DNA of 10,031 bases, from positions 1 through 10,031 of the IMG/VR virus record IMGVR_UViG_2645727991_000007. One strand, written 5' to 3'. Position numbers and translations under genes: made by a program. The notes beneath the pieces are model-generated. The model had not been told where the DNA came from and did no database searches. It saw only the letters and a program-made list of their open reading frames with translations. Positions 1 through 10,031 of the stretch are shown here, in pieces. Each line of letters opens with the position of its first letter. The stretch's first letter is position 1. The DNA is from a virus. Lineage: Duplodnaviria; Heunggongvirae; Uroviricota; Caudoviricetes.

Positions 1-934
1 AATAAACGCCCTCACTCTCCCTGTTTTTATACCCGCCGTACACGGTGTCGTACTGGGTAGCGTATGTATTTTTCCAGTAATACGTCGTGTCACCACAAAT
101 CCACGGCACATCTGCAGCACTGCCACCATGACACTGCGCGTTAAACACAGTGAGGTCAGCACGAAACTGCTTCAGCATGGCTGTAAACAGCGCAGGTTGC
201 TGTGCGTAGGTGGCGGCGCTCATGTCAAACTCTCCCTGCATCCAGCACACCGCCAGCAACACATTTTTCGGGTTCTTCTGTAATGCAGCTTTAGTGCGCG
301 CAATCAGGTCCTGATATAACGGTTTACCCACACCCCAGCGTGCCGAATCCTGGCTGGCCCCCGCGTCCGCACTGAATGTCCCCTCCGCGCCCTGGGTGAA
401 TGCCGAACCACCACGACAGCATGGTACCAGCAGGATCCCCGCGTTATTCGGGATATACGGAAGCAGTTTTTTGGCAATATGTAAGCCCTGGCCGACACAG
501 CCGTACTGCCCTTTGCTCAGGTCTGCCTTCGGATGATTCAGCGTACTCATATCCTGCACATCATGCAGGCAGTGGTCGGCCGGAATAATATCGTTATATC
601 TGCAGGCAGCCCCACCCGGCGTCACTGTACTGCGGCGCGCCAGCTGTTTAATGCGCGGATCCGGAGCATCGTATGAATCCGGCAGCGGAAGCCCTTCACC
701 GTAAGCCATGGCATTGGATTGCCCGGCCAGTACGATGACGTAGTACCAATCCGGCTCAGTTGCACCACTGACCACCACATCACCTTCTGCTGTAATCGCC
801 TGCATCAGAGTATAAGGGGTTATGGCCACCGGACTACCAAACGGCTGCCAGCCCTCTTTCAGTTTGTGTGTCAGCTTTTCCGCAAGGTCTGACGGCGACG
901 CCGCCCTGACAACATCATAATGTTTAAATGTCAT
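1..934 (-). CDS. 5' portion (about 311 codons) of a prophage NanS-p-like sialate O-acetylesterase (SASA/SGNH esterase); 3' end lies beyond the window start
   Basis: Minus-strand frame is open from ATG 934..932 (SD GGAGGA, rev-comp of tcctcc at 939-944) to the window edge; absent from the ORF track because the stop is outside the window. Translation starts MTFKHYDVVRAASPSDLAEKL and contains VLAGQSNAMAYGEG, the GQSN serine block typical of sialate O-acetylesterases. Location after the phage tRNAs matches nanS-p placement in Stx-type prophages. Family call is from memory. Confidence 0.55.
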   Translation of the reverse strand, partial: MTFKHYDVVRAASPSDLAEKLTHKLKEGWQPFGSPVAITPYTLMQAITAEGDVVVSGATEPDWYYVIVLAGQSNAMAYGEGLPLPDSYDAPDPRIKQLARRSTVTPGGAACRYNDIIPADHCLHDVQDMSTLNHPKADLSKGQYGCVGQGLHIAKKLLPYIPNNAGILLVPCCRGGSAFTQGAEGTFSADAGASQDSARWGVGKPLYQDLIARTKAALQKNPKNVLLAVCWMQGEFDMSAATYAQQPALFTAMLKQFRADLTVFNAQCHGGSAADVPWICGDTTYYWKNTYATQYDTVYGGYKNRESEGVY

Positions 935-1118
935 TATTCCTCCCGGCCGGGATAGTGTATTAAATCAGATATGGAGTGGGCTGTAGTCCGGAAGCCTGAA
1001 TGACACACGGGGACTACAGCCCAAGAAATGAAAAAAGGCCACGCAGTTGCGCAGCCTGATAAACCCTGGTTAAAATCCACACGATAACAACACAACAATA
1101 TCAGTATCTCATGCTATT

Positions 1119-1143
1119 GCCCGAACCCATTCGGGCATTTTTT
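1119..1143 (+). terminator. Intrinsic-terminator-like hairpin, plus-strand orientation
   Basis: gcccgaa(1119-1125) / loop ccca / ttcgggc(1130-1136), perfect 7-bp stem, followed by a-tttttt (1138-1143). Confidence 0.35.
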
Positions 1144-1148
1144 ACCCA

Positions 1149-1176
1149 TAAAAAATGCCCCTCCGGAGAGGGGCAT
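1149..1176 (-). terminator. Rho-independent terminator ending the TerB-like/small-ORF unit
   Basis: Perfect 9-bp stem atgcccctc(1155-1163) / loop cgga / gaggggcat(1168-1176); on the minus strand it is followed by TTTTTTAT (plus A-run 1150-1155). Confidence 0.5.
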
Positions 1177-1355
1177 GTTTGCATACACATTCTTTTTCTT
1201 GCATGGTGCCGGGTGCCTCCCGGTGAATTCAGCCGGTGTCACTGAACCCGCGTCGGCTTGCCTATAACATAATAAATGCTACCTACACCAGTCGCCCCTC
1301 CGCACAGGGGGATTCACCATGCAGAAGTGTTTTTAATAAACAGCAAATAAAAAAA

Positions 1356-1523
1356 TCAAGCATTATGCAGGCTGTTTCTTTTTATCACCGGCCACAGCAA
1401 TACCACAATGCCGCAGACCAGCACCCCATCCGCCAGCACCGACATGATTCTGCTGGTGAAATCCACCATCACCACCAGAAACAGCAGGAGTGCAGCCACA
1501 GCCAGGCGCAGTTTTACCGTCAC
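1356..1523 (-). CDS. Small hydrophobic protein (55 aa, two predicted TM segments), GTG start overlapping the TerB-like stop
   Basis: Below the ORF-track length cutoff. Minus-strand GTG 1523..1521 overlaps the upstream TGA (GTGA); possible SD GGAG 9 nt upstream. Translation VTVKLRLAVAALLLFLVVMVDFTSRIMSVLADGVLVCGIVVLLWPVIKRNSLHNA, stop TGA 1358..1356. No homolog recalled. Confidence 0.3.
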   Translation of the reverse strand: MTVKLRLAVAALLLFLVVMVDFTSRIMSVLADGVLVCGIVVLLWPVIKRNSLHNA

Positions 1524-1949
1524 AGGTAATTCTCCAGACGAAGACCCAGAACACCGGCAATCTCTTCCAGCACCTTGCGCTCTTCCGGCTCAATTTCGCC
1601 GTCTGCCTCCGCAATGGCCACCGCCACATCCAGCACATCTTCCGCTTCACGCGTATCGTGTTTCACATCCTCAATCTCGCGTAACGCGGCACGACGACCA
1701 ATTTTAAAATTGGTATCCAGCTGACCGATAATGGTTGCGCTAATCGCATTAATTTCCGAGGTAAACGCAGACAACGCAGGCTGATTACGTAAGACCTGTT
1801 CGATCTTCGCTTTCTCGGATGCCTCGCATTCACCATCTGCATAGGCCACCAGGTATGCAGCGTTAATCACCGCCTGTGCCAGATCGCGTTTCTCAAACTT
1901 TTTAATTTCCGCTGCCGCTCTGCGGGTTTTCTTTTTGAAGATTCCAAAC
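1520..1949 (-). CDS. TerB-like (tellurite-resistance TerB domain family) protein, 142 aa
   Basis: ORF-track frame 1520..2023, trimmed to ATG 1949..1947 which has SD AAGGAA 7 nt upstream (the track start at 2023 is GTG with no SD). Translation MFGIFKKKTRRAAAEIKKFEKRDLAQAVINAAYLVAYADGECEASEKAKIEQVLRN... EADGEIEPEERKVLEEIAGVLGL, with the paired ADGE helix repeats typical of TerB. Family call from memory. Confidence 0.6.
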
Positions 1950-2083
1950 ATCGTGACGTTCCTTTGGGTGGGTGAGCCAACGCCCGGGAGCGATCTGCCC
2001 ACAGAGAAAGTCACACTGACCACTCCGTAAGCTCACCCCCGAAAGGCTCTGTGGTTGATATGCGCCGGGCGTGGCGCAGATAC

Positions 2084-2107
2084 AAAAAAGGCCCGCCGAA
2101 GCGAGCC
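2084..2107 (-). terminator. Rho-independent terminator downstream of the tRNA pair
   Basis: On the minus strand GGCUCGC-UUCG-GCGGGCC (7-bp stem with one G-U, UUCG tetraloop; plus 2090-2107) followed by UUUUUU (plus A-run 2084-2089). Confidence 0.5.
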
Positions 2108-2120
2108 TGGAAAATAAGTG

Positions 2121-2197
2121 TGGCGCGTTGTAGTGGAGTCTAACCACTGACCGATTGCTTAGAAGGCAATTGCTCTGTCCGACTGAGCTAACAACGC
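2121..2197 (-). tRNA. tRNA-Arg (anticodon UCU), 77 nt with encoded CCA; prophage argN/argO-type
   Basis: Rev-comp folds by hand as a cloverleaf: acceptor GCGTTGT/ACAACGC, D-arm GCTC-AGTCGGACA-GAGC, anticodon arm ATTGC-CTTCTAA-GCAAT (TCT anticodon), variable CGGTC, T-arm AGTGG-TTAGACT-CCACT, discriminator G, CCA. The T-loop has A where the conserved C56 is expected. Confidence 0.65.
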
Positions 2198-2278
2198 ATG
2201 ATGCTGATAATGGACCGCCACCGGGGACTCCGAATCTCGCACAGGGTGACGTTCTTTCCTGATGAGCTAGTGGCGGTT

Positions 2279-2354
2279 GGTGGCCCTTGCTGGATTTGAA
2301 CCAGCGACCTGGCGATTATGAGTCACTCGCTCTCACCACTGAGCTAAAGGGCCG
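2279..2354 (-). tRNA. tRNA-Ile2 (anticodon CAU; ileX/ileZ-like, likely scored as tRNA-Met by generic tools), 76 nt with encoded CCA
   Basis: Rev-comp GGCCCTTTAGCTCAGTGGTGAGAGCGAGTGACTCATAATCGCCAGGTCGCTGGTTCAAATCCAGCAAGGGCCACCA; cloverleaf with anticodon loop CTCATAA. Differs at only a few positions from E. coli ileX as I recall it; Stx-type prophages carry ileZ-argN-argO at this position. Confidence 0.75.
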
Positions 2355-2362
2355 ATAACATA

Positions 2363-2391
2363 ATGATAACGTTACAGAATAAATTCAGCAA
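2363..2391 (-). promoter_or_regulatory. Sigma70-like promoter positioned to start the tRNA transcript
   Basis: On the minus strand TTGCTG (plus 2391-2386), 17-bp spacer, TATCAT (plus 2368-2363); the -10 ends 8 nt before the tRNA 5' end at 2354. Lies in the last codons of the methylase ORF. Confidence 0.4.
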
Positions 2392-2393
2392 TA

Positions 2394-3092
2394 TCACTCT
2401 CTCTTTCTGATTAAATTCTGTACATCCCTTGCGGTCTGCTCAAAACGTCCGGTCTCCAGCTCAACGCCAATTGCACGACGCCCCAGTGCATTCGCTGCTT
2501 TGACTGTCGAACCGGACCCCATGAAGAAATCTGCAACCAGGTCTCCCGGACGACTGCTGGCGGTAATCATTTGCCGCAACATATCTGCCGGTTTTTCACA
2601 GGGATGTTTGCCCGGATAATACTGCACAGGCTTGTGCGTCCAGACATCCGTATAAGGAACGGCTGCCGATACGGAAAAATAACGCCGCAGTGATTTGTAC
2701 TCTTCCAGCAGGCTGGCATACTGCCGGTTCAGCTCACTGTATGTGCTGACCAGTTGGTGATGTGGCTTTTCCAGTTCACCCCGCTGATGTTTCTCTTCTG
2801 CCACCCGGGCAAACAGCACCTGAAGTTTTCTGTAATCATCCTCGTTCGGTAACTGCCACTGGCTGGCACTGAACCAGTGCGACACCATGTTTTTCTTTCC
2901 TGTGGCATCCACAATCTGTTTTGCCGTTATCCCCAGAGCAGCACGCGCATCACGAAAGTAAGAAATCAGCGGGGCCATCACATGCTGTTTCAGTGCACTG
3001 CCCTTCGCCGCATAACCACAAATAAAAAAGCCTTTACTGCGGAAGGCGTCTGTAACAACCGAACTGATAGTCTGCCAGACCCGCCATAACAA
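2394..3092 (-). CDS. DNA methyltransferase (N6/N4 amino-MTase family), C-terminal and target-recognition portion only; probably 5'-truncated or inactive
   Basis: ORF-track frame. C-terminal block HPCEKPADMLRQMITASSRPGDLVADFFMGSGSTVKAANALGRRAIGVELE matches the HP(T/C)xKP ... D(P)FxGSG(T/S)T ... GxE signature of this family. No DPPY/NPPY/SPPF motif IV anywhere in the ORF or in other frames upstream to 3354. The track start at 3092 is TTG; first in-frame ATG is 2978. Confidence 0.6.
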   Translation of the reverse strand: MLWRVWQTISSVVTDAFRSKGFFICGYAAKGSALKQHVMAPLISYFRDARAALGITAKQIVDATGKKNMVSHWFSASQWQLPNEDDYRKLQVLFARVAEEKHQRGELEKPHHQLVSTYSELNRQYASLLEEYKSLRRYFSVSAAVPYTDVWTHKPVQYYPGKHPCEKPADMLRQMITASSRPGDLVADFFMGSGSTVKAANALGRRAIGVELETGRFEQTARDVQNLIRKRE

Positions 3093-3231
3093 GCTGGGTC
3101 AGTATTAACTGGCAGCGTTCGCGTGAAAGATAAGTGTTCTGCGCAATTTCCTCGACGGTCGCCGGTTCGGTGACGCTTAATTCATTAAACACCACTCTGG
3201 CGGTTTCGGTCATATCCTGCTGTTTTAGCAT
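3034..3231 (-). CDS. Small helix-turn-helix protein (about 65 aa), PapI/FaeA-like winged-helix candidate
   Basis: ATG 3231..3229 within track frame 3034..3354. Translation MLKQQDMTETARVVFNELSVTEPATVEEIAQNTYLSRERCQLILTQLVMAGLADYQFGCYRRLPQ, with the TVEEIAQ...LSRERCQLILTQLV segment HTH-like. Start uncertain: ATG 3213 and the GTG at 3354 are alternatives; the SD is weak. Confidence 0.35.
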   Translation of the reverse strand: MLKQQDMTETARVVFNELSVTEPATVEEIAQNTYLSRERCQLILTQLVMAGLADYQFGCYRRLPQ

Positions 3232-3354
3232 GCCTTTTTCCCTTTTCCGGTTAACGTGACACACCAATAACTCTTGTCGAAAAAGCCAGCAAGCTGAAAG
3301 AACGGTATTAATAACCACCAGCGAATTTATTGCGCTGCTGTATATTACGGACAC

Positions 3355-3375
3355 AAAAAAACCACCTTCCGGTGG
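3355..3375 (-). terminator. tR'-like intrinsic terminator ending the short late leader
   Basis: Minus strand CCACC-GGAA-GGUGG (plus 3362-3375, 5-bp GC-rich stem, GNRA loop) followed by UUUUUUU (plus 3355-3360). Confidence 0.5.
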
Positions 3376-3472
3376 CTTCCTTGTGCGAAAAAACTTGCAT
3401 TTCGCCTCGCGATACAGCTTTGCGGAGCTTACAGGAATTCAAGCTGTTTCTGCGTAAAAAAGCAAGCTTTTT
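3376..3472 (-). promoter_or_regulatory. Putative Q-dependent late promoter (PR'-like) and leader immediately downstream of Q
   Basis: Minus strand after the Q stop: AAAAAGCTTGCTTTTTTACGCAGAAACAGCTTGAATTCCTGTAAGC... Candidate -35 TTGCTT, 17-bp spacer, -10-like TTGAAT; an AT palindrome AAAAAAGC-TT-GCTTTTTT; a leader hairpin GCGAAA-N9-TTTCGC; then the terminator. Element positions are tentative. Confidence 0.35.
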
Positions 3473-4015
3473 TTATCGAAATGAATCGTGCATAGGTACA
3501 TAAAGCATGTGTTCAGCCACGGCTAACCAACCTGCAATACGTTTCTCACATGTGCTGAAACACCATTCCGGGTGAGTACGATTTAAACATTCTGCCATTT
3601 TTCTCTTACTCATTCCCCGTCCTTCGTACCTTTGCCGGAGAATATTGATTAGCCCGGGATATTCCCCAAGCACCTCACTGATAACGCGATCAATAATCAA
3701 CGCCTCTGTGTCTGTACAATGTGACAACCAGCTCTTCTGCTTCCCTCTGGTCATATCCCGAAAAAATGCCTCAAGTTCCGGTTTTTCCAGCCCGGATTTC
3801 TTCATGCTGCGTAAAACCTCATTAACTGCTGTTTTCGTCAGCCTTTTCGAAACCAGTAACCGGTTAAACATATTTCCGGATTTACCCCCACCGATATACG
3901 ACCACCGCCCCCACATCCGTAATTTCCCCTGGATCCAGACTGCTTCCAGCGTGTTCAGGCGTAAATGTTCGCCGCTTTTGCCTGTAATTTCCGGATATAT
4001 CATATTTACGCTCAC
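3473..4015 (-). CDS. Antitermination protein Q (Q21/Q82-type, Phage_antitermQ-like)
   Basis: ORF-track frame; GTG start 4015 overlaps the rusA stop (GTGA), alternative ATG at 4003. Contains LRMWGRWSY (compare the ERWGAWA motif of Q82-type proteins, from memory) and C-terminal cysteines EWCFSTC. Sits between rusA and the late promoter/terminator, the canonical Q position. Confidence 0.55.
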   Translation of the reverse strand: MSVNMIYPEITGKSGEHLRLNTLEAVWIQGKLRMWGRWSYIGGGKSGNMFNRLLVSKRLTKTAVNEVLRSMKKSGLEKPELEAFFRDMTRGKQKSWLSHCTDTEALIIDRVISEVLGEYPGLINILRQRYEGRGMSKRKMAECLNRTHPEWCFSTCEKRIAGWLAVAEHMLYVPMHDSFR

Positions 4016-4371
4016 TCACTCTCAATTTTGTAAATCTTCACACCCAGCCGTCCACCAGATACTGGCTGACCACGTACAATATTGATTTCATCAAACTGCT
4101 CGTCATCAATGAGCACTCCCGCATGCGTCAGCGCATCCAGCGGTGCTTTCAGAATATTGTCCAGGTCACGACGACGCTTATCCGGTGGCTCTGCAATAAT
4201 TTTTATTGCCAGCCGTCCGGACAGGCTTAATTTCAGTCGCTGCTGGCGAACAATAAGCGCCACTGCCCGGCGATAACGCTCCCCGGCTTTTGATACAAAA
4301 TATGTGCTGCCACGGCGTCGCCAGTAAGTGTTCACCGTCGGCGGGTAAGGTAAAACCAAATCTATGAGCAT
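4012..4371 (-). CDS. rusA: Crossover junction endodeoxyribonuclease RusA (Holliday junction resolvase)
   Basis: 119-aa ORF, ATG 4371 with SD AGAGGTGA. Translation MLIDLVLPYPPTVNTYWRRRGSTYFVS...PDKRRRDLDNILKAPLDALTHAGVLIDDEQF closely parallels E. coli RusA (PDRRRRDLDN...DALTKAG), from memory. Confidence 0.85.
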   Translation of the reverse strand: MLIDLVLPYPPTVNTYWRRRGSTYFVSKAGERYRRAVALIVRQQRLKLSLSGRLAIKIIAEPPDKRRRDLDNILKAPLDALTHAGVLIDDEQFDEINIVRGQPVSGGRLGVKIYKIESE

Positions 4372-4383
4372 CAGTCACCTCTT

Positions 4384-5433
4384 TTACCCGAGCACGCCGG
4401 TTGCAAAGGCGTGATCAAGAAAACGAAAAATTAACTCAATCTGAGAGCCGTACTTTTTCTCAAACTCCAGCGGGTCTGCATGAAGTTCGTTGTGGTGCTC
4501 CCGGCACAACGGTAACGTGAAAATATCGTGGGCCTTTGTCCCCATTCCCCCCTGACCATGACCAATCAGGTGATGCGGATCGTCAGCAGGCTTACCACAA
4601 CACGCACACGGCTGTGTCTTTACCCAGCGCGTGTATTTCTCGTTAACCCAGCGGCGACGTTTAGGTCGTTTCATGAAAGATTCCGGAGACTCAGGATCAA
4701 CGGCAATGCTGACCACCGTCTTTTCCTGTGGTGGGTTCTGTTGCTGGTGGGCGTGAGGCAGCGGCGCAAGATTTTTTGTGCGCTGCTTCAGTATGCTGGT
4801 GGCGGTCTGCTCTCCCGGTACGATGTCGCTTTCACGGTACACTGAGCGGATTTTTTCCGCACGCAACCCCAGCGAACGACGTAATACCGCTTCCGGTAGC
4901 GCGTCCGCCACCTGATTGCGGACCGCCCACCAGGATAATTCAGCCAGAGATAATTCACGCTCCTGCGTACCGCATATTGCGTGACCGATGACGTCAATCA
5001 TCCATGCTGACAGGTTTTGATGAGCAAGTTGCTCGAGTGATTCGGATGTCTGGTCACGCAGCTGGTTGTCGCAGTGCCAGCACAACACCATTGCGCCGGT
5101 ACCATAACGGTGAATAACGGTTTCACTGTGATGATAATCGCCGTGTGGCCACTGGCAGGATTTAACATGGCGCAGTAACCAGTCAGACAATGCGCCAGCG
5201 CCACCAGCAGCACGAATCACCCGTGCGTTACTGAAAAACGGCAGCAATGTTTTGTCTTCCACTAGCGGCTGGCGAACGGCAGGGACGATGCCGGACGGCA
5301 GATTACGCATGCTTTTCGGTTCCGGCTCCACCAGTACCCGGGTATTGTGGAATACCGGCATGGATTCACGGCCCGGCTTAACGATCACCAGCCCGAGTTC
5401 CGGTACCAGAACAGGTCGAAGTAATACCCGCAC
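4384..5433 (-). CDS. DUF968-domain prophage protein (YdfU-like), 349 aa
   Basis: ORF-track frame; GTG start 5433 with SD GGAGG 4 nt upstream. MRVLLRPVLVPELG... N-terminus and C-terminal CACCGKPADDPHHLIGHGQGG...LPLCREHHNELH (HNH/zinc-like) match my recollection of Qin-prophage YdfU. Contains two plus-strand Chi octamers (4743-4750, 4795-4802). Confidence 0.75.
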   Translation of the reverse strand: MRVLLRPVLVPELGLVIVKPGRESMPVFHNTRVLVEPEPKSMRNLPSGIVPAVRQPLVEDKTLLPFFSNARVIRAAGGAGALSDWLLRHVKSCQWPHGDYHHSETVIHRYGTGAMVLCWHCDNQLRDQTSESLEQLAHQNLSAWMIDVIGHAICGTQERELSLAELSWWAVRNQVADALPEAVLRRSLGLRAEKIRSVYRESDIVPGEQTATSILKQRTKNLAPLPHAHQQQNPPQEKTVVSIAVDPESPESFMKRPKRRRWVNEKYTRWVKTQPCACCGKPADDPHHLIGHGQGGMGTKAHDIFTLPLCREHHNELHADPLEFEKKYGSQIELIFRFLDHAFATGVLG

Positions 5434-5434
5434 G

Positions 5435-5707
5435 TTACCTCCAGATGCGTTGCTGGAATGTGCGGGACGGACGCGGCGGGCGTTCGGAATAAAGGAGCCT
5501 GACGTAGATTATCCAGTGACGGTAGTCGAGGCTAAGGGCTTTCTTAAACTCATACCCACGTCTGCGGTAGTTATGAATCAGCCATTCGGCCTGTTCTTCA
5601 GTGCAGGGATCGTGCTGATACCAGTCATATTTGAATGTGTGAGAACACCGCCCTTGCCTGCTGGCAGGGGCGATATCAGAATTGTGATGTTTGGTATTGT
5701 GCGCCAT
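5435..5707 (-). CDS. Hypothetical protein (about 90 aa)
   Basis: Track frame 5435..5761 begins at a TTG; first ATG is 5707 (MAHNTKHHNSDIAPASRQGRCSHTFKYDWYQHDPCTEEQAEWLIHNYRRRGYEFKK...). TAA stop 5437..5435 sits 1 nt before the DUF968 GTG. No family recognised. Confidence 0.4.
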   Translation of the reverse strand: MAHNTKHHNSDIAPASRQGRCSHTFKYDWYQHDPCTEEQAEWLIHNYRRRGYEFKKALSLDYRHWIIYVRLLYSERPPRPSRTFQQRIWR

Positions 5708-5776
5708 CGGTTTTCTCTGCTGGCGCAGCAGGTGCCAGTTGTTCAAGCTGGCGTGCGGCAATATTGTCTCTGATTT

Positions 5777-5807
5777 CTGTTGTCGTCAACAGGCAACGTG
5801 CTATCAT
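5777..5807 (+). promoter_or_regulatory. Toxin-antitoxin promoter with palindromic operator
   Basis: -35 TTGTCG (5780-5785), 16-bp spacer, -10 TATCAT (5802-5807); perfect palindrome CTGTTG-tcgt-CAACAG (5777-5792) overlaps the -35; SD GTGAGG at 5831-5836. Confidence 0.45.
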
Positions 5808-5842
5808 CGAATGGTGTTCTATCCTACTCCGTGAGGTTTACC

Positions 5843-6100
5843 ATGCGTACAACCCAACAATTCAGCATTACATTAACTAACGAAATGGCTGACATGGTGC
5901 GCGCCCGTGTGGCTTCCGGTGCCTATGCTTCAGAAAGCGAGGTCATTCGTGAAGGGCTTCGCGCACTGAATGAGCGCGATAAAGCAATCGAAGCGTGGTT
6001 AACGCATTCAGCCGCCCCCTCTCTTGATTCTATCCGCGAAAACCCAAACAACGGACGCTCCATTTCACAGGTTCGCGCCGCGATTCGATCCGGGAAGTAA
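5843..6100 (+). CDS. Type II antitoxin, ParD-like (ribbon-helix-helix/CopG family)
   Basis: ATG 5843 within track frame 5780..6100. Translation MRTTQQFSITLTNEMADMVRARVASGAYASESEVIREGLRALNERDKAIEAWL... ; stop is 5 nt before the toxin start. Confidence 0.75.
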   Translation: MRTTQQFSITLTNEMADMVRARVASGAYASESEVIREGLRALNERDKAIEAWLTHSAAPSLDSIRENPNNGRSISQVRAAIRSGK

Positions 6101-6105
6101 TCTGC

Positions 6106-6405
6106 ATGACATATGAAGTCATCATTACTCCTGAGGCCGAAGAACAAATAATCAACCTGCACAGATATATAACGGAGAAAGCAGGGAACGTCATTGCTGA
6201 CAATTTTGCCAATGCGCTTCTTGATTATCTTGATGGGTTTTCTACATTCCCGCATCGGGGCAATAAACGCGATGATATTCGCCAGGGGATGCGGGTAACT
6301 CATTTCCGCCACAGAACGATTATTGCTTTTGCCGTTGATGGCAGAAAAGTCTTTATTGTCGGTATCTATCATGGTGGGCAAAGTTATGAAACCGATTTCT
6401 TATAA
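6106..6405 (+). CDS. Type II toxin, ParE/RelE superfamily
   Basis: 99-aa ORF MTYEVIITPEAEEQIINLHRYITEKAGNVIADNFANALLDYLDGFSTFPHRGNKRDDIRQGMRVTHFRHRTIIAFAVDGRKVFIVGIYHGGQSYETDFL; size, operon position after the RHH antitoxin and the C-terminal FxV...IxHG pattern fit ParE. Confidence 0.8.
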   Translation: MTYEVIITPEAEEQIINLHRYITEKAGNVIADNFANALLDYLDGFSTFPHRGNKRDDIRQGMRVTHFRHRTIIAFAVDGRKVFIVGIYHGGQSYETDFL

Positions 6406-6488
6406 ACTTTTACCCACATCATTCCGGTGTTAGAATTAACCGTCCGCCCCCCTCTCTTACTGGCGGATTCGTAGGCTATATAAATCAA

Positions 6489-6523
6489 AGATCCCGGCTC
6501 ATGTTTGTGTCGGGATCTTTTTT
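6489..6523. terminator. Bidirectional intrinsic terminator between the convergent TA operon and the minus-strand small-peptide ORF
   Basis: 8-bp stem agatcccg(6489-6496) / 14-nt loop / cgggatct(6511-6518), followed by TTTTTT (6518-6523) on plus and by CTTTGATTTATAT on minus. Confidence 0.5.
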
Positions 6524-6530
6524 CGGCGAT

Positions 6531-6614
6531 TTATCCCCAGCGGCAAATCGAATACACCACCAGCGCCACCGCCATCGCAATTCCTACCGTTGTGAATGCT
6601 TCAGGCCTGGTCAT
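6531..6614 (-). CDS. 27-aa single-TM peptide, translationally coupled to the upstream ORF
   Basis: Below the track cutoff. ATG 6614..6612 overlaps the TGA of the 114-aa ORF (ATGA). Translation [30 protein letters not shown] stop 6533..6531, terminator directly downstream. Confidence 0.25.
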
Positions 6615-6955
6615 CGTAAAACATCCTCCACGCTTGTCAGTCCGTTTCGCTCCAGGTAGTCCATCGCCTTATCCGGCAGTTTGCAGTCCGGCTTCGCTTT
6701 CCTCAGTTGCCAGGCTAACTGCTTTACCTGCATAGTTAACTCGTCGACCAGACGCTGATACCCCACTGGTTTGTATTCATGCAATTTACCGGCTGGCTCT
6801 GCTGCCAGCGATGCCAGTGCGATTTCCAGAACAGCAATATCCATCTTATATGTGCGGATGATGTCATGGTCGATTGTGCCCGGTATACACAGTCTCTGTG
6901 CTTCAATAGTCTCCTCTGCGTGAGCTATTAACTGCTCTCTGGTAATAGTGGTCAT
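6611..6955 (-). CDS. Hypothetical prophage protein (114 aa)
   Basis: ORF-track frame; ATG 6955..6953 overlaps the upstream TGA (ATGA). [31 protein letters not shown]... ; no family recognised. Confidence 0.55.
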
Positions 6956-7467
6956 GCCGCGTTTCCTTCTTTCTTATTAACAATTACACCGTCATATATT
7001 TCATTAAGGTGCCCTCTCAACTCCATGCGCCTTAATGCAGACAACATGTAATCGCATTCAACCTGCTTATTTCCAGTAAATGGCTTATCGTCAGGATTAC
7101 CCCAACAGCAATTACCCTTGGGCCACCCATGTACTTTCCGTACTCTTCCGTTAACAACGTGAAGTAATCCCCAGCCAGGTGGTAAATCCTCAATTGAAAT
7201 AATTCCCGGCTCACTAATAAAGAATCGCCAGTCGCCCATTCCAAGAGACGGATTTTTACGAAAACACTTTTTTCTATCTGCCAACAAGTCAGCACGAGAA
7301 CATTTCGCCTCTATCAGGCATGATGCTGAATTTCTGAATCCCATAGCATCTGGCTGTTCTCCGGTACTGGTTACAGCTATAAAGCGGTCATGAAAACAAA
7401 CCTTGAACCCGTTGCGCTTAAGGAACTTGTACGCAATCTGACAGAGTTCGCGGTGTGTTAACGCCAT
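6952..7467 (-). CDS. Hypothetical protein with PD-(D/E)xK-like nuclease motif (171 aa)
   Basis: Track frame 6952..7497 trimmed to ATG 7467..7465 (SD AAGGAG 7 nt upstream), 1 nt after the Ea22-like stop. [21 protein letters not shown] gives D ... E-x-K with spacing typical of the PD-(D/E)xK fold; the fold assignment is inference only. Confidence 0.55.
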
Positions 7468-7468
7468 A

Positions 7469-8416
7469 TCACTCTCCTTTGATGCGAATGCCAGCAAGCC
7501 AGTTTCTTATGCCGATATATTCAGCGTTCCTGAAACCGCTTTTTACATATATAAATGGCAAGCGAAGATTGTGACCATTGACTGCCAGGTAGTCTTTACA
7601 ACCCTGTTCGGTGAAACAGCAGGTAACGAATTCATCAATATCTTTCACAGCAACGCGCCGCCATTTTTCTGGTGGCTCTCGAAAGTTTTCATGAAGTAGC
7701 TCGAGACGACGACTATGGCGTTTATTGGCTTCATTGCCATCTTCGTCAACCCAGACAATCCGGTCATGGTCATAATCAGCATCAACAACGATTTCGCGCT
7801 TTTGATACACACAAAACATGGGATCTGACGTTATTCGATTGTCCTGTGTTCGAATATTTTCACCGATGATGCCAAACGAATCTGGTGCAGATTTTGTCTG
7901 CATCTCTTCGATACGTTCAGCCATCGCAGCACACTCTTCAAAGTTGCTTAATGCTTTTCGCTCCCATTCGGCGCATTGTTTTTCCAGTTCTGCTATGCGC
8001 TTACTTCCATCCGCGATTACTCCCTCGTAATATTCACGCTGCTCGTTGAGTTTTGATTTTGCTGCTTCAAGCTCAACGCGCAGCTTCCCTACCGTTAGCG
8101 CAATATCCTCGTTCTCCTGGTCGCGGCGTTTGATGTATTGCTGGTTTCTTTCCCGTTCATCCAGAAGCGCCAGCGCAACATTTGGATTAAAGGCAGCAAT
8201 AAATTCAGCGTTTGCGTAAGCCTGAGCATCTGTTTCAACCAGGCAGTTAACATGACATTCTGCAATCACGCCACCGGGTTCTCCTTTCCATTTTTGACAA
8301 ACAAAAACTCCTGTTATATTCCCATGCTGATTGCCCGATGTATGCCCTACGATGTAGCATCCTTTAGTTGCTTTCTCTGCTGCTTCACGCAGCGCCTGAT
8401 AGTCAATCTCGCTCAT
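7469..8416 (-). CDS. Ead/Ea22-like family protein (315 aa) with central coiled-coil
   Basis: ORF-track frame; ATG 8416..8414 overlaps the upstream TGA. N-terminus MSEIDYQALREAAEKATKG, the LLDERERNQQYIKRRDQENEDIALTVGKLRVELEAAKSKLNEQREYYEG coiled-coil and the C-terminal AGIRIKGE resemble lambda Ea22-type proteins as I recall them. Confidence 0.6.
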   Translation of the reverse strand: MSEIDYQALREAAEKATKGCYIVGHTSGNQHGNITGVFVCQKWKGEPGGVIAECHVNCLVETDAQAYANAEFIAAFNPNVALALLDERERNQQYIKRRDQENEDIALTVGKLRVELEAAKSKLNEQREYYEGVIADGSKRIAELEKQCAEWERKALSNFEECAAMAERIEEMQTKSAPDSFGIIGENIRTQDNRITSDPMFCVYQKREIVVDADYDHDRIVWVDEDGNEANKRHSRRLELLHENFREPPEKWRRVAVKDIDEFVTCCFTEQGCKDYLAVNGHNLRLPFIYVKSGFRNAEYIGIRNWLAGIRIKGE

Positions 8417-8589
8417 TCATCGCCCCACTCATCACAATATGCTTCGACCGCAGTTTTCCCTGCTTCATAATCATCACGCCATGCTTCAGCATCAGCAGCA
8501 CTGCCACCACGTAACTCTGCATAGTCCATTAACAGTTCATGCCATTCTTCAAAACTGACGCTGTATTTAGTTGAACCAAAATCAGCCAT
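8413..8589 (-). CDS. Small highly acidic protein (58 aa)
   Basis: Below the track cutoff. ATG 8589..8587 with strong SD AGGAGGA. Translation MADFGSTKYSVSFEEWHELLMDYAELRGGSAADAEAWRDDYEAGKTAVEAYCDEWGDE; 16 D/E versus 4 K/R. Confidence 0.4.
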   Translation of the reverse strand: MADFGSTKYSVSFEEWHELLMDYAELRGGSAADAEAWRDDYEAGKTAVEAYCDEWGDE

Positions 8590-8590
8590 T

Positions 8591-8764
8591 TTATTCCTCC
8601 TCTTCGTCTTTTATTTCGTGATATGAGTAATTGCAGTAGTTAAAGAAAATATCTTTTGCTTCGTCATGTATTTCATCAGGCGTCGCATCATCATCCACTT
8701 CGAATTCATCCTCGAAATCTCCACCGGCTATTCCCGTTTCAATAATTATTTTAAACTTTCGCAT
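8591..8764 (-). CDS. Small highly acidic protein (57 aa)
   Basis: Below the track cutoff. ATG 8764..8762 preceded in frame by TAA. Translation MRKFKIIIETGIAGGDFEDEFEVDDDATPDEIHDEAKDIFFNYCNYSYHEIKDEEEE; 20 D/E versus 5 K/R. TAA stop is 1 nt before the next ATG. Confidence 0.4.
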   Translation of the reverse strand: MRKFKIIIETGIAGGDFEDEFEVDDDATPDEIHDEAKDIFFNYCNYSYHEIKDEEEE

Positions 8765-8857
8765 TTAACTACCGCCCTTTCGGGCGGCCTCCTGATGTTC
8801 TTAGGGTGCAGAAATCCCTCCGGTTAAGGATTAAATTTTTAACAGAGCTAAATTTAA

Positions 8858-9214
8858 TTATTCAGTTCTGGATTTTGTCGCCCTGCGTATCCGCGCTTTC
8901 GCGTTACGCTCAATCTGAATTAGCTTTTCTATATTTTTTCGCCTTTCCCGCTCCTCCTGGCGCAAGAGCCTTACATCATCTGCCAGTCTGGTTTCTCTTT
9001 TCGCCACAGAGAGCATCCAGTCAAACGGCTCCACAACTGCACCGCAGATTTTACAGCGGACCTGACGCTCTTTTTCGTCAACCCGAACAGAGGCGTGATG
9101 ACAATATGCTCTTTCCGATGCCTCATAAAGAAAATTAACCTGATTACGTGGGTCATCCTCTTTTACCGGAAATAAAACGATATTGCTTAACTCATCTTCT
9201 GGTTTTATTTCCAT
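8858..9214 (-). CDS. Hypothetical protein (118 aa) with CHH...CxxC zinc-ribbon-like motif and basic C-terminal tail
   Basis: Track frame 8858..9271 trimmed to ATG 9214..9212 (SD AAGGAG 6 nt upstream). MEIKPEDELSNIVLFPVKEDDP...AYCHHASVRVDEKERQVRCKICGAVVEPFDW...RLLRQEERERRKNIEKLIQIERNAKARIRRATKSRTE. Confidence 0.5.
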   Translation of the reverse strand: MEIKPEDELSNIVLFPVKEDDPRNQVNFLYEASERAYCHHASVRVDEKERQVRCKICGAVVEPFDWMLSVAKRETRLADDVRLLRQEERERRKNIEKLIQIERNAKARIRRATKSRTE

Positions 9215-9271
9215 GCTCTTCTCCTTTGATGTGAATGCCAGCGGTAATTGAAGCCTGATAGCTAATTTCAT

Positions 9272-9667
9272 TCACAGTATCGCCTCCTGAAAATTACCCT
9301 GATAGAAAGCCAGTACACGCAGCATAACTTCACTCTTCCGGCACTCGCCACAGATTATGTTCTGTTGTCTGTCGTAGCGGCGTATTTCTCCGTCTGGTAA
9401 CTTTCGAATCAATGTCTGGTCGGTTGTTTTCTCCGCTGCCTTACGCCATACGCGATACACCTGTTCTGATGTAAAAACACCGTATTTACCGGGCATGTAT
9501 AAATCGCCACAAGCCAGTACATCCACAAGGCAACGTCTGACTGAATGCCAGCCTGCTCCCGTCGCTCTCTCCAGTTGTGATATCGTCATGCGTTCATTTT
9601 TGCGTACCAGCCCGATAATTCGGGCCTTCAGTTCTTCACGCTGTTCGTGTGTAAAAGGTTTCGCCAT
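9272..9667 (-). CDS. Hypothetical protein (131 aa), possible winged-helix DNA-binding protein
   Basis: Track frame 9272..9682 trimmed to ATG 9667..9665 (SD GGAGG). MAKPFTHEQREELKARIIGLVRKNERMTISQLERATGAGWHSVRRCLVDVLACGDLYMPGKYGVF... ; the TISQLERATGAGWHSVRRCL segment is HTH-like (inference). Confidence 0.5.
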   Translation of the reverse strand: MAKPFTHEQREELKARIIGLVRKNERMTISQLERATGAGWHSVRRCLVDVLACGDLYMPGKYGVFTSEQVYRVWRKAAEKTTDQTLIRKLPDGEIRRYDRQQNIICGECRKSEVMLRVLAFYQGNFQEAIL

Positions 9668-9682
9668 AAGCGCCTCCGGCAA

Positions 9683-10031
9683 TCACTTTTCCGATACAAC
9701 ACGGCGGGAAGAATCAGTAATCTGTCGAACAATATCCCGGTGCTTGTTCAGCTCCCGCAGCGCGGCGCAGACTCGCTCCCACTTCTGAACATCACTTTTC
9801 GCCCTGCGCAGCGCCAGGTTTGCCCTGCGAAGGGACGGAAAAATCAGCTCATCTGCTTGCGTTTCGGTAAACGATGGCAACGGCTGCACAATGTCCGCCA
9901 CAGTTTCTGTTTTAATTTCTTCCTGTGTTGCGGCTTCCCGGACTGGTAACGCAGCACCTGCTGGCTGAGGAAAGGCCTTACCATCATTTTCCGTTACCGG
10001 CGCGGCTTTCGGATCTGCTGGTAAATTACCC
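9683..10031 (-). CDS. 3' portion of a gene continuing upstream beyond the window end (function unknown, possibly replication-region protein)
   Basis: The track gives 9683..9901 from an internal GTG, but the same frame stays open to the window edge (...GNLPADPKAAPVTENDGKAFPQPAGAALPVREAATQEEIKTETVADIVQPLPSFTETQADELIFPSLRRANLALRRAKSDVQKWERVCAALRELNKHRDIVRQITDSSRRVVSEK). Stop at 9685..9683. Confidence 0.45.
   Translation of the reverse strand, partial: GNLPADPKAAPVTENDGKAFPQPAGAALPVREAATQEEIKTETVADIVQPLPSFTETQADELIFPSLRRANLALRRAKSDVQKWERVCAALRELNKHRDIVRQITDSSRRVVSEK

Follow-up and report, generated by a model that had tools for sequence, protein, structure and literature searches.

A coupled accessory-gene string in a lambdoid prophage region, with a predicted MmcB-like nuclease and a conserved 27-residue peptide

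Results

Organization of the gene string

The window analysed here is a stretch of 10,031 nucleotides of tailed-phage DNA (Caudoviricetes; positions 1 to 10,031 of IMG/VR record IMGVR_UViG_2645727991_000007). Our subject is a string of minus-strand genes within it that encodes, in order of translation, an Ead/Ea22-like protein of 315 residues, a PD-(D/E)xK nuclease of 171 residues, a helical protein of 114 residues and a hydrophobic peptide of 27 residues (Table 1). A sequence-only reading of this DNA had reported these four joined open reading frames (ORFs), and all four are found with the positions and junctions it gave. Its description of the extent of the string stands in part: the coupling of the four ORFs is correct, but the string does not start at 8416, as the coupled run reaches 8764 through two further small ORFs. 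The successive junctions of the four genes read TGAtATG, ATGA and ATGA. The stop codon TGA of the Ea22-like gene (7471-7469) is separated by a single base from the ATG of the nuclease ORF at 7467, and the two following junctions are overlaps at 6955-6952 and 6614-6611. Farther upstream, the stop codon of the DUF7167 ORF lies 1 nt from the ATG of the ORF at 8413-8589. A purine-rich ribosome-binding site precedes every start in the string. Overlapping gene junctions of this kind are usual in phage early operons.

Table 1 Positions of the coupled genes and adjoining features in the window
Feature	Position	Strand	Basis or remark
57-aa DUF7167 ORF	8591..8764	-	PF23768, E 7e-15; phrog_1997; first gene of the coupled run
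58-aa acidic ORF	8413..8589	-	phrog_519; RefSeq hypothetical protein; ATGA overlap with the Ea22-like gene
Ead/Ea22-like protein, 315 aa	7469..8416	-	PF13935; phrog_250, 368, 3205; RefSeq product name
171-aa PD-(D/E)xK nuclease ORF	6952..7467	-	
114-aa all-helical Eaa/YfdT-like protein	6611..6955	-	alignment; phrog_660, 924, 8171, 60
GGAGGA Shine-Dalgarno of the 27-aa ORF	6624..6629	-	within the 3' end of the 114-aa gene
27-aa single-pass membrane peptide (predicted), conserved	6531..6614	-	
Hairpin, 10-bp stem and 14-nt loop	6487..6520	both strands	
parD/parE type II toxin-antitoxin cassette, convergent, abutting the string	5843..6405	+	PF03693, PF05016; RefSeq annotation

The 2.2 kb around the string match a prophage in the Shiga-toxigenic Escherichia coli (STEC) strain 2013C-3342 (NZ_CP027766), with a reported identity of 100.0% and at least one mismatch, at 7266. 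The RefSeq annotation of this prophage lists integrase, excisionase, exonuclease, dicB, a LexA-family repressor, cro, YdaT, a DnaT-like gene, P, DUF1627, DUF977 and further genes. It continues with DUF7167, a hypothetical gene, ead/Ea22-like, a ‘frameshifted’ pseudogene, another hypothetical gene and the convergent ParD/ParE pair, and then runs through DUF968, RusA, DUF1133, a methyltransferase, tRNAs and the lysis genes. The string is thus bracketed by replication protein P/DUF1627/DUF977 on one side and by DUF968/RusA/DUF1133 on the other. This gene order bears out the proposed nin-like location, between the replication genes and DUF968/RusA/antiterminator, and places the string in a nin-like stretch of the delayed-early operon. 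In lambda, the nin region lies between the replication genes and the late antiterminator and holds accessory genes, including nucleases acting on DNA structures (NinG, RusA), as well as the terminators tR2-tR4. The window resembles it in carrying a string with a nuclease and a terminator at this place, with RusA and DUF968 just downstream, and differs from it in that the hairpin is shared with an inserted convergent parDE cassette.

A PD-(D/E)xK nuclease with an intact active site

The 171-residue protein had been proposed to carry a PD-(D/E)xK motif, and this assignment is confirmed by its fold and by the conservation of its catalytic residues. The structural model contains a restriction-endonuclease-like alpha/beta core. 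The catalytic core reads G36-E37-x2-D40 ... E53-x-K55, followed by S57-R58-x-D60-x3-D64, with E37, D40, E53 and K55 placed on strands E41-45 and E48-54 of the model. Across 38 aligned homologs, E37, D40 and E53 never vary and at least 90% retain K55; S57, R58, D60, D64, K67 and the strings GMGDWRF and WGLL are also conserved. Homologs of about 170 residues, with 59-87% identity, occur in Klebsiella, Lelliottia, Cronobacter, Enterobacter, Serratia, Rahnella, Morganella, Providencia and Salmonella, and in phages.

The protein has no match in Pfam, NCBIfam or PADLOC (Pfam and PADLOC searched at E up to 0.1). Its closest fold is that of 3dnx, a bona fide MmcB-like protein with which it also shares the motif string. 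The family member P0420 scores 17.8 bits against PF06319, below the gathering cut-off of 22, and the nuclease profile meets the 3dnx sequence at an E value of only 0.35. From model and motifs, the 171-residue protein is best described as a stand-alone nuclease of an unclassified sister family of the MmcB-like nucleases. This family comprises 3221 clusters at 50% identity (E up to 1e-3) and is without a Pfam model of its own. Of the established relatives (PF06319/DUF1052; 3dnx, that is SPO1766; Caulobacter MmcB), PF06319/3dnx appears in a survey of PD-(D/E)xK proteins (PMC3424549), and MmcB has been described as an endonuclease under SOS induction that shields Caulobacter against mitomycin C (PMC9578287). 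Its role in the repair of crosslink damage under SOS control is known only from Caulobacter genetics (PMC9578287). Unlike them, the window protein carries the additional conserved strings GMGDWRF, WGLL and NKQxEC, and it is borne by phages and prophages of Enterobacterales; PF06319, by contrast, is found mostly on the chromosomes of alphaproteobacteria (PMC3424549). By analogy with other nucleases of nin regions, the 171-residue nuclease, with its active site intact, probably cleaves DNA that is damaged or branched while the phage replicates or recombines.

The nuclease ORF is intact both in the window and in the reference strain, with one residue differing between them. RefSeq/PGAP nevertheless marks it as a 179-bp ‘frameshifted’ pseudogene and leaves the remainder unannotated in all three records inspected, one of which is a 97-kb plasmid (L001 12890-13068; L002 5692-5870; L154 3338-3516). 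Many O157:H7 copies align over 514 rather than 516 bases (for example NZ_CP030767.1 2270642-2271155), which points to a 2-bp deletion in these copies, hence to a true frameshift. Truncated products of 110-150 residues are common in the protein database. In complete E. coli genomes, plasmids some 60-155 kb in size, such as NZ_CP128972.1, account for 250 of the 1300 matching places. These plasmid copies again adjoin Ea22-like and DUF551 genes, and from their gene content the large plasmids that bear the nuclease look like phage-plasmids.

A conserved 27-residue peptide at the end of the string

The last ORF of the string, put forward earlier as encoding a tiny single-TM peptide, proves to be a genuine and conserved gene. 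Its GGAGGA Shine-Dalgarno sequence (6629-6624) lies 9 nt ahead of the ATG. When the region 6440-6780 was compared with phages by blastn, many matches of about 86% identity were limited to query positions 91-175, which correspond to the 27-residue ORF (6531-6614) plus one flanking base. In phage 933W this block directly follows L0139 through the same ATGA overlap and is itself followed by hokW/sokW (locus L003 2636-2910). Full-length copies were found by tblastn in 90 phage records. Wherever a phage record was inspected, the first base of the copy lay 4 nt ahead of the upstream gene's end; this gene is L0139 in 933W and an Ea22, EaA or DUF551 gene in other phages. None of the RefSeq and phage records inspected annotates the ORF, and only two had a feature on the opposite strand or in an alternative frame over it. 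In GenBank a small number of entries list the product under the name ‘bacteriophage protein’, among them KRR59888.1, which is identical to the window peptide.

The wider distribution was obtained with a degenerate DNA pattern in which only codons 1, 3-6 and 24-26 are fixed. In IMG/VR this pattern yields 126 matches that encode 37 distinct peptides. All 126 run for exactly 27 codons to the stop and all 126 begin at an ATGA junction, while GGAGG or GAGG lies within 20 nt of the ATG in each of the 120 viral contigs; the junction is conserved beyond chance. When 185,579 species were scanned with a single genome each, the pattern gave 13 matches, seven of which are true 27-codon copies, five in Escherichia/Shigella records and two on tiny contigs assigned to Xanthomonas pisi (L144, 431 bp) and Acinetobacter idrijaensis (L151, 369 bp). 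As a control, the six chance matches, in GC-rich metagenome-assembled genomes, all lack a 27-codon ORF. The copies on L144 and L151 are of the Stx-phage type, the L144 peptide being identical to that of 933W, and both probably represent assembly contamination.

Since the pattern itself fixes codons 3-6 and 24-26, codon statistics were computed on the unconstrained codons 7-23. Third positions are the most variable there (entropy 0.96 vs 0.50 and 0.34), and the ratio of non-synonymous to synonymous polymorphism (pN/pS) is 0.45 in the peptide frame vs 0.77 and 1.35 in the other sense frames. For the antisense frame with shared wobble positions the value is 0.38, so that pN/pS alone is indecisive as to strand. 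Replacements are conservative in the sense frame alone, with a mean BLOSUM62 score of +0.44 vs -0.46 for the antisense frame, and the ends of the antisense open frame differ in every context. On these codon signatures, the peptide is a real, conserved and uncharacterised small protein.

The peptide consensus, M-x-W-P-E/D-A-F ... ICRWG, encloses a hydrophobic core with a mean Kyte-Doolittle value of 2.1 over residues 6-24, and in five phage copies found independently of the pattern W3-P4 and C-R-W-G stand on either side of this core. The peptide is served by a strong ribosome-binding site of its own, and its most likely fate is insertion into the inner membrane. In the window peptide residue 3 is Arg (AGG, 6606-6608); all five other pattern-free phage copies have Trp (TGG) at this position, so the Arg is a derived change in a conserved W-P motif. 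The peptide of locus L002 has CHWG for CRWG, and P0242 is a 39-residue read-through variant. The peptide has no match in Pfam, NCBIfam or PADLOC; KdpF and DUF883_C appeared weakly (E about 0.03) and were rejected as composition matches. A fusion of the peptide to DUF551 proteins of 121 and 185 residues in the same cluster was considered and dropped, because these sequences end in ...PPQEVNQ, do not contain the peptide and are the products of upstream genes. No Rfam match overlaps the ORF, a search of CPS-53, the E. coli K-12 prophage with the related yfdQRST genes, did not find the ORF, and a full-text literature search found no published paper with the peptide sequence.

The genes assort independently

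It had been proposed that the nuclease, the 114-residue protein and the peptide form a small abortive-infection or superinfection-exclusion module, for which they should travel together. Among 5426 complete E. coli genomes, the nuclease gene (coverage of at least 80%) is present in 910 and the gene of the 114-residue protein in 563; the contiguous trio is found in only 49, and the whole 2.2-kb arrangement, including Ea22 and the end of parE, in 11. The 120 peptide-bearing IMG/VR contigs, which are phylogenetically non-independent and whose counts are descriptive only, contain the nuclease in 10 cases (340-1422 nt away, with differing spacers), a relative of the 114-residue protein in 46 and an Ea22 N-terminal domain in 28.

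Homologs of the nuclease in lambdoid prophages of Serratia, Morganella and Klebsiella lie between replication genes and NinG/DUF1367/Q-type antiterminator genes, and a copy in a phage of about 100 kb is surrounded by uncharacterised genes. The upstream neighbours in these four settings are mutually unrelated, methyltransferase-like and coiled-coil proteins being among them. Annotated neighbours on either side of nuclease homologs include methyltransferase-like and coiled-coil proteins, dATP/dGTP pyrophosphohydrolase, NinF, DUF551 and MUG113. The C-terminal domain of Ea22, considered as a possible conserved upstream partner of the nuclease, was rejected, as it is not conserved there. In phage ArgO145 an HNH endonuclease takes the place of the nuclease ahead of the 114-residue gene. 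No unit conserved across unrelated elements, as expected of a multi-gene defence module, was found, and PADLOC returned no family for any of the seven proteins at E up to 0.1. The genes thus essentially belong to ordinary phage early regions, and each is independently exchangeable, in the manner of lambdoid accessory-region mosaicism.

The 114-residue and Ea22-like proteins

The 114-residue protein has no match in Pfam, NCBIfam or PADLOC. Its PHROG matches are piecewise, and some of them also match the Ea22-like protein; its close homologs are confined to Escherichia, Shigella and Salmonella. In the family alignment the N-terminal module varies, the IALASL(E/A)AEP hinge is invariant, an insert that can reach about 100 residues is optional, and a conserved C-terminal module ends in SVEDVLR. 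Some relatives are named Eaa or bear DUF551. The N-terminal module aligns with E. coli K-12 YfdT at 96.6% in hhalign, and K-12 yfdT (CPS-53 prophage, L140 11874-12179) encodes this module followed by an IAL(A/V)SLE(A/V)EP hinge, as in the 114-residue family. The protein thus resembles P22 Eaa, K-12 YfdT and DUF551-type proteins in having the N-terminal module of YfdT, the IALASLEAEP hinge and a C-terminal module common to proteins called Eaa or DUF551. It differs from them in being a minimal form that has neither the insert nor the DUF551 domain. The structural model shows four helices (pLDDT 76, pTM 0.40), and a fold search with this model of pTM 0.40 returned nothing significant (best E 2.0).

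At the end of this gene, the joint ...GAGGATGT(A/T)TT(A/G)CGATGAC... (window 6611-6632) unites the gene end (..VEDVLR stop), the Shine-Dalgarno sequence and the next start. In Salmonella, the same joint, GAGGATGT..CGATGA, links members of the family to other genes downstream (L155-L157 around 2880-2908). Because Salmonella prophages reuse the joint between different gene pairs, its sequence suggests that such junctions act as reusable module boundaries for recombinational shuffling.

The Ea22-like call for the 315-residue protein holds: residues 2-145 match PF13935 with 154.5 bits (cut-off 27) and an E value of 3e-45, passing the gathering score. This Ead_Ea22 domain is followed by a segment with weak coiled-coil-type matches and by a C-terminal domain at 162-314 (phrog_3205). 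The combination of an N-terminal Ead_Ea22 domain with a separate C-terminal domain fits the three-part layout described for Ea22 proteins of lambda and Stx phages (PMC7093339). The C-terminal domain is unlike those of lambda, 933W and P27, and the window gene follows the replication genes in the nin-like region, rather than lying between exo and xis. The Ea22 family has been reported to favour lysogeny (PMC7093339), and from this report the window protein may have a similar, pro-lysogenic role.

A hairpin shared with the parDE cassette

Ten nucleotides past the stop codon of the peptide lies a hairpin with the 10-bp stem AAAGATCCCG / CGGGATCTTT, which a consensus terminator scan missed because its loop measures 14 nt. 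It folds with -20.7 kcal/mol on the minus strand (z -2.4) and -26.6 kcal/mol on the plus strand (z -3.4), relative to shuffled sequences. On the plus strand the stem is followed by TTTTTT (UUUUUU in the RNA), whereas the minus-strand tail is only TTTGATTTATAT, the minus-strand RNA after the same stem having the tail UUUGAUUUAUAU. The hairpin had been described as a bidirectional terminator closing the string. A hairpin does follow the peptide, but its T-run lies on the parDE side, so that it would first of all be a terminator of the convergent parDE cassette. Only 7 of the 120 peptide-bearing contigs have the hairpin, and a convergent parE occurs in 6 of these 7; the hairpin therefore belongs to the parDE insertion and not to the string. 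Judged by its sequence, it would terminate parDE transcripts intrinsically and stop those of the minus-strand string less strongly.

Other features of the window

Upstream of about 9242, the window diverges from the otherwise near-identical reference prophage (window 9192-10031 vs L001 14793-16300): the identity is 86% or no match is found, and the small genes ahead of DUF977 differ. This divergence is, to judge from the alignment, another mosaic breakpoint. In the prophage late region, Rfam matches are present for the anti-GcvB sponge small RNA AgvB (96.5 bits, 1082-1143, plus strand) and, adjoining it, for STnc100 (153.6 bits, 1144-1348, minus strand). Two prophage tRNA genes on the minus strand (2121-2197 and 2278-2353), flanked by a TerB-like gene and a DNA methyltransferase gene, comprise tRNA-Arg(UCU) and a tRNA with a CAU anticodon, the latter assigned to Met by ARAGORN and to Ile by RefSeq.

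Discussion

Based on the above data, we propose, with a probability of roughly 70%, that the string is the relay-translated tail of a delayed-early operon in a lambdoid STEC prophage and consists of independent accessory genes rather than a co-adapted system. Transcription would enter from the cro/replication side and cross DUF977, DUF7167 and other small ORFs before reaching the string, where each overlapping stop/start junction would let ribosomes move on to the next gene. The first product would be a member of the Ea22 family, reported to be pro-lysogenic (PMC7093339); the second a stand-alone MmcB-like nuclease, probably acting on damaged or branched DNA; the third a small helical protein of the modular Eaa/YfdT family; and the fourth the 27-residue peptide, most likely directed to the inner membrane. 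The hairpin would stop transcripts of parDE and would also block or attenuate read-through from the string.

Several points weigh against this proposal. The co-occurrence counts come from non-independent contigs, the trio does stay contiguous in 49 genomes, and Shigella phage POCJ13 repeats the order Ea22-like, nuclease, DUF551 and peptide, an indication that certain arrangements recur by descent. In this particular arrangement the genes may still act together. Moreover, a toxin-antitoxin (TA) locus lies just past the peptide in 66 of the 120 viral contigs (IMG/VR loci L010-L129), an unexplained adjacency that may be no accident. Of these TA loci, 58 are hok/sok, which for the most part lie on the same strand and 150-400 nt downstream, and 8 are a convergent parDE. 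The end of the operon looks to be an insertion hotspot for TA loci.

This adjacency is the starting point for an alternative in which the peptide works with the neighbouring hok/sok or parDE locus, as a membrane-active toxin or modulator, in an addiction or exclusion unit. The peptide does resemble Hok and other small hydrophobic type I toxins in its size, in its hydrophobicity as a single hydrophobic helix and in its closeness to hok/sok in many phages, hokW of 933W adjoining the copy there. It has, however, no sequence similarity to Hok, and instead of an antisense-controlled transcript of its own, with a promoter, a long leader and an antisense RNA, it shows a start coupled to the upstream gene in every copy. 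The two kinds of TA locus are unrelated to each other, 54 of the 120 contigs have neither, and in WGPS2 and PhiR12_1 further ORFs and then xis/int lie downstream of the peptide. The adjacency may merely reflect the many 933W-like Stx phages in the sample. We consider such a unit unlikely.

The module of nuclease, 114-residue partner and membrane peptide proposed at the outset, expressed from the prophage and acting in abortive infection or superinfection exclusion, is in our judgement very unlikely. Its composition, a nuclease with an intact active site together with a membrane peptide, does recall some small defence systems; its genes are translationally coupled, the trio persists in a minority of genomes, and parDE lies next door. 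Against this stand the independent assortment of the components, the unrelated neighbours of the nuclease in other genera and the lack of a PADLOC match, and the peptide also closes gene strings in which no nuclease is present. In addition, the string lies within a lytic delayed-early operon and the promoter-like sites in our scan are not above shuffled controls, so that we found no evidence for expression in the lysogen.

That the 84-bp block is untranslated, either a conserved joint without coding function (a recombination linker) or a piece of an antisense gene, is scarcely credible: related junction sequences are indeed reused between modules, and the wobble-sharing antisense frame is open in 98% of copies with its low pN/pS, but the constant length of 27 codons plus stop, which chance matches lack, the ever-present Shine-Dalgarno sequence, the variable third positions, the replacements conservative in the sense frame alone and the shifting ends of the antisense frame all speak for translation.

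Under the proposed reading of independent accessory genes, the failure of the defence-module candidate saves follow-up effort, and the value of the locus is left in an unclassified, mis-annotated nuclease family and an overlooked peptide of Stx phages. The nuclease is found in about 17% of complete E. coli genomes yet is marked as a pseudogene, so that prophage gene inventories may under-count it. Tentatively, and at rather long odds for the two ideas jointly, the peptide might be a small inner-membrane effector of Stx and lambdoid phages, and, separately, the 171-residue protein might represent a large new phage branch of the MmcB-like nucleases. If so, the peptide would have been overlooked because gene callers skip its ORF, and its target would be some membrane process of the host, for instance in superinfection exclusion, in the modulation of transporters or of the division machinery, or in membrane depolarisation. 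Its placement at the operon end, by hok/sok or parDE, would then reflect a shared ‘host-control’ hotspot, and the nuclease branch, with its roughly 3200 clusters, would have a role in phage DNA metabolism. Stx phages of medical importance, 933W and VT2-Sakai among them, conserve the peptide, which adds a component to Ea22-type regions; these regions are poorly understood and affect lysogeny as well as the induction of Shiga-toxin phages.

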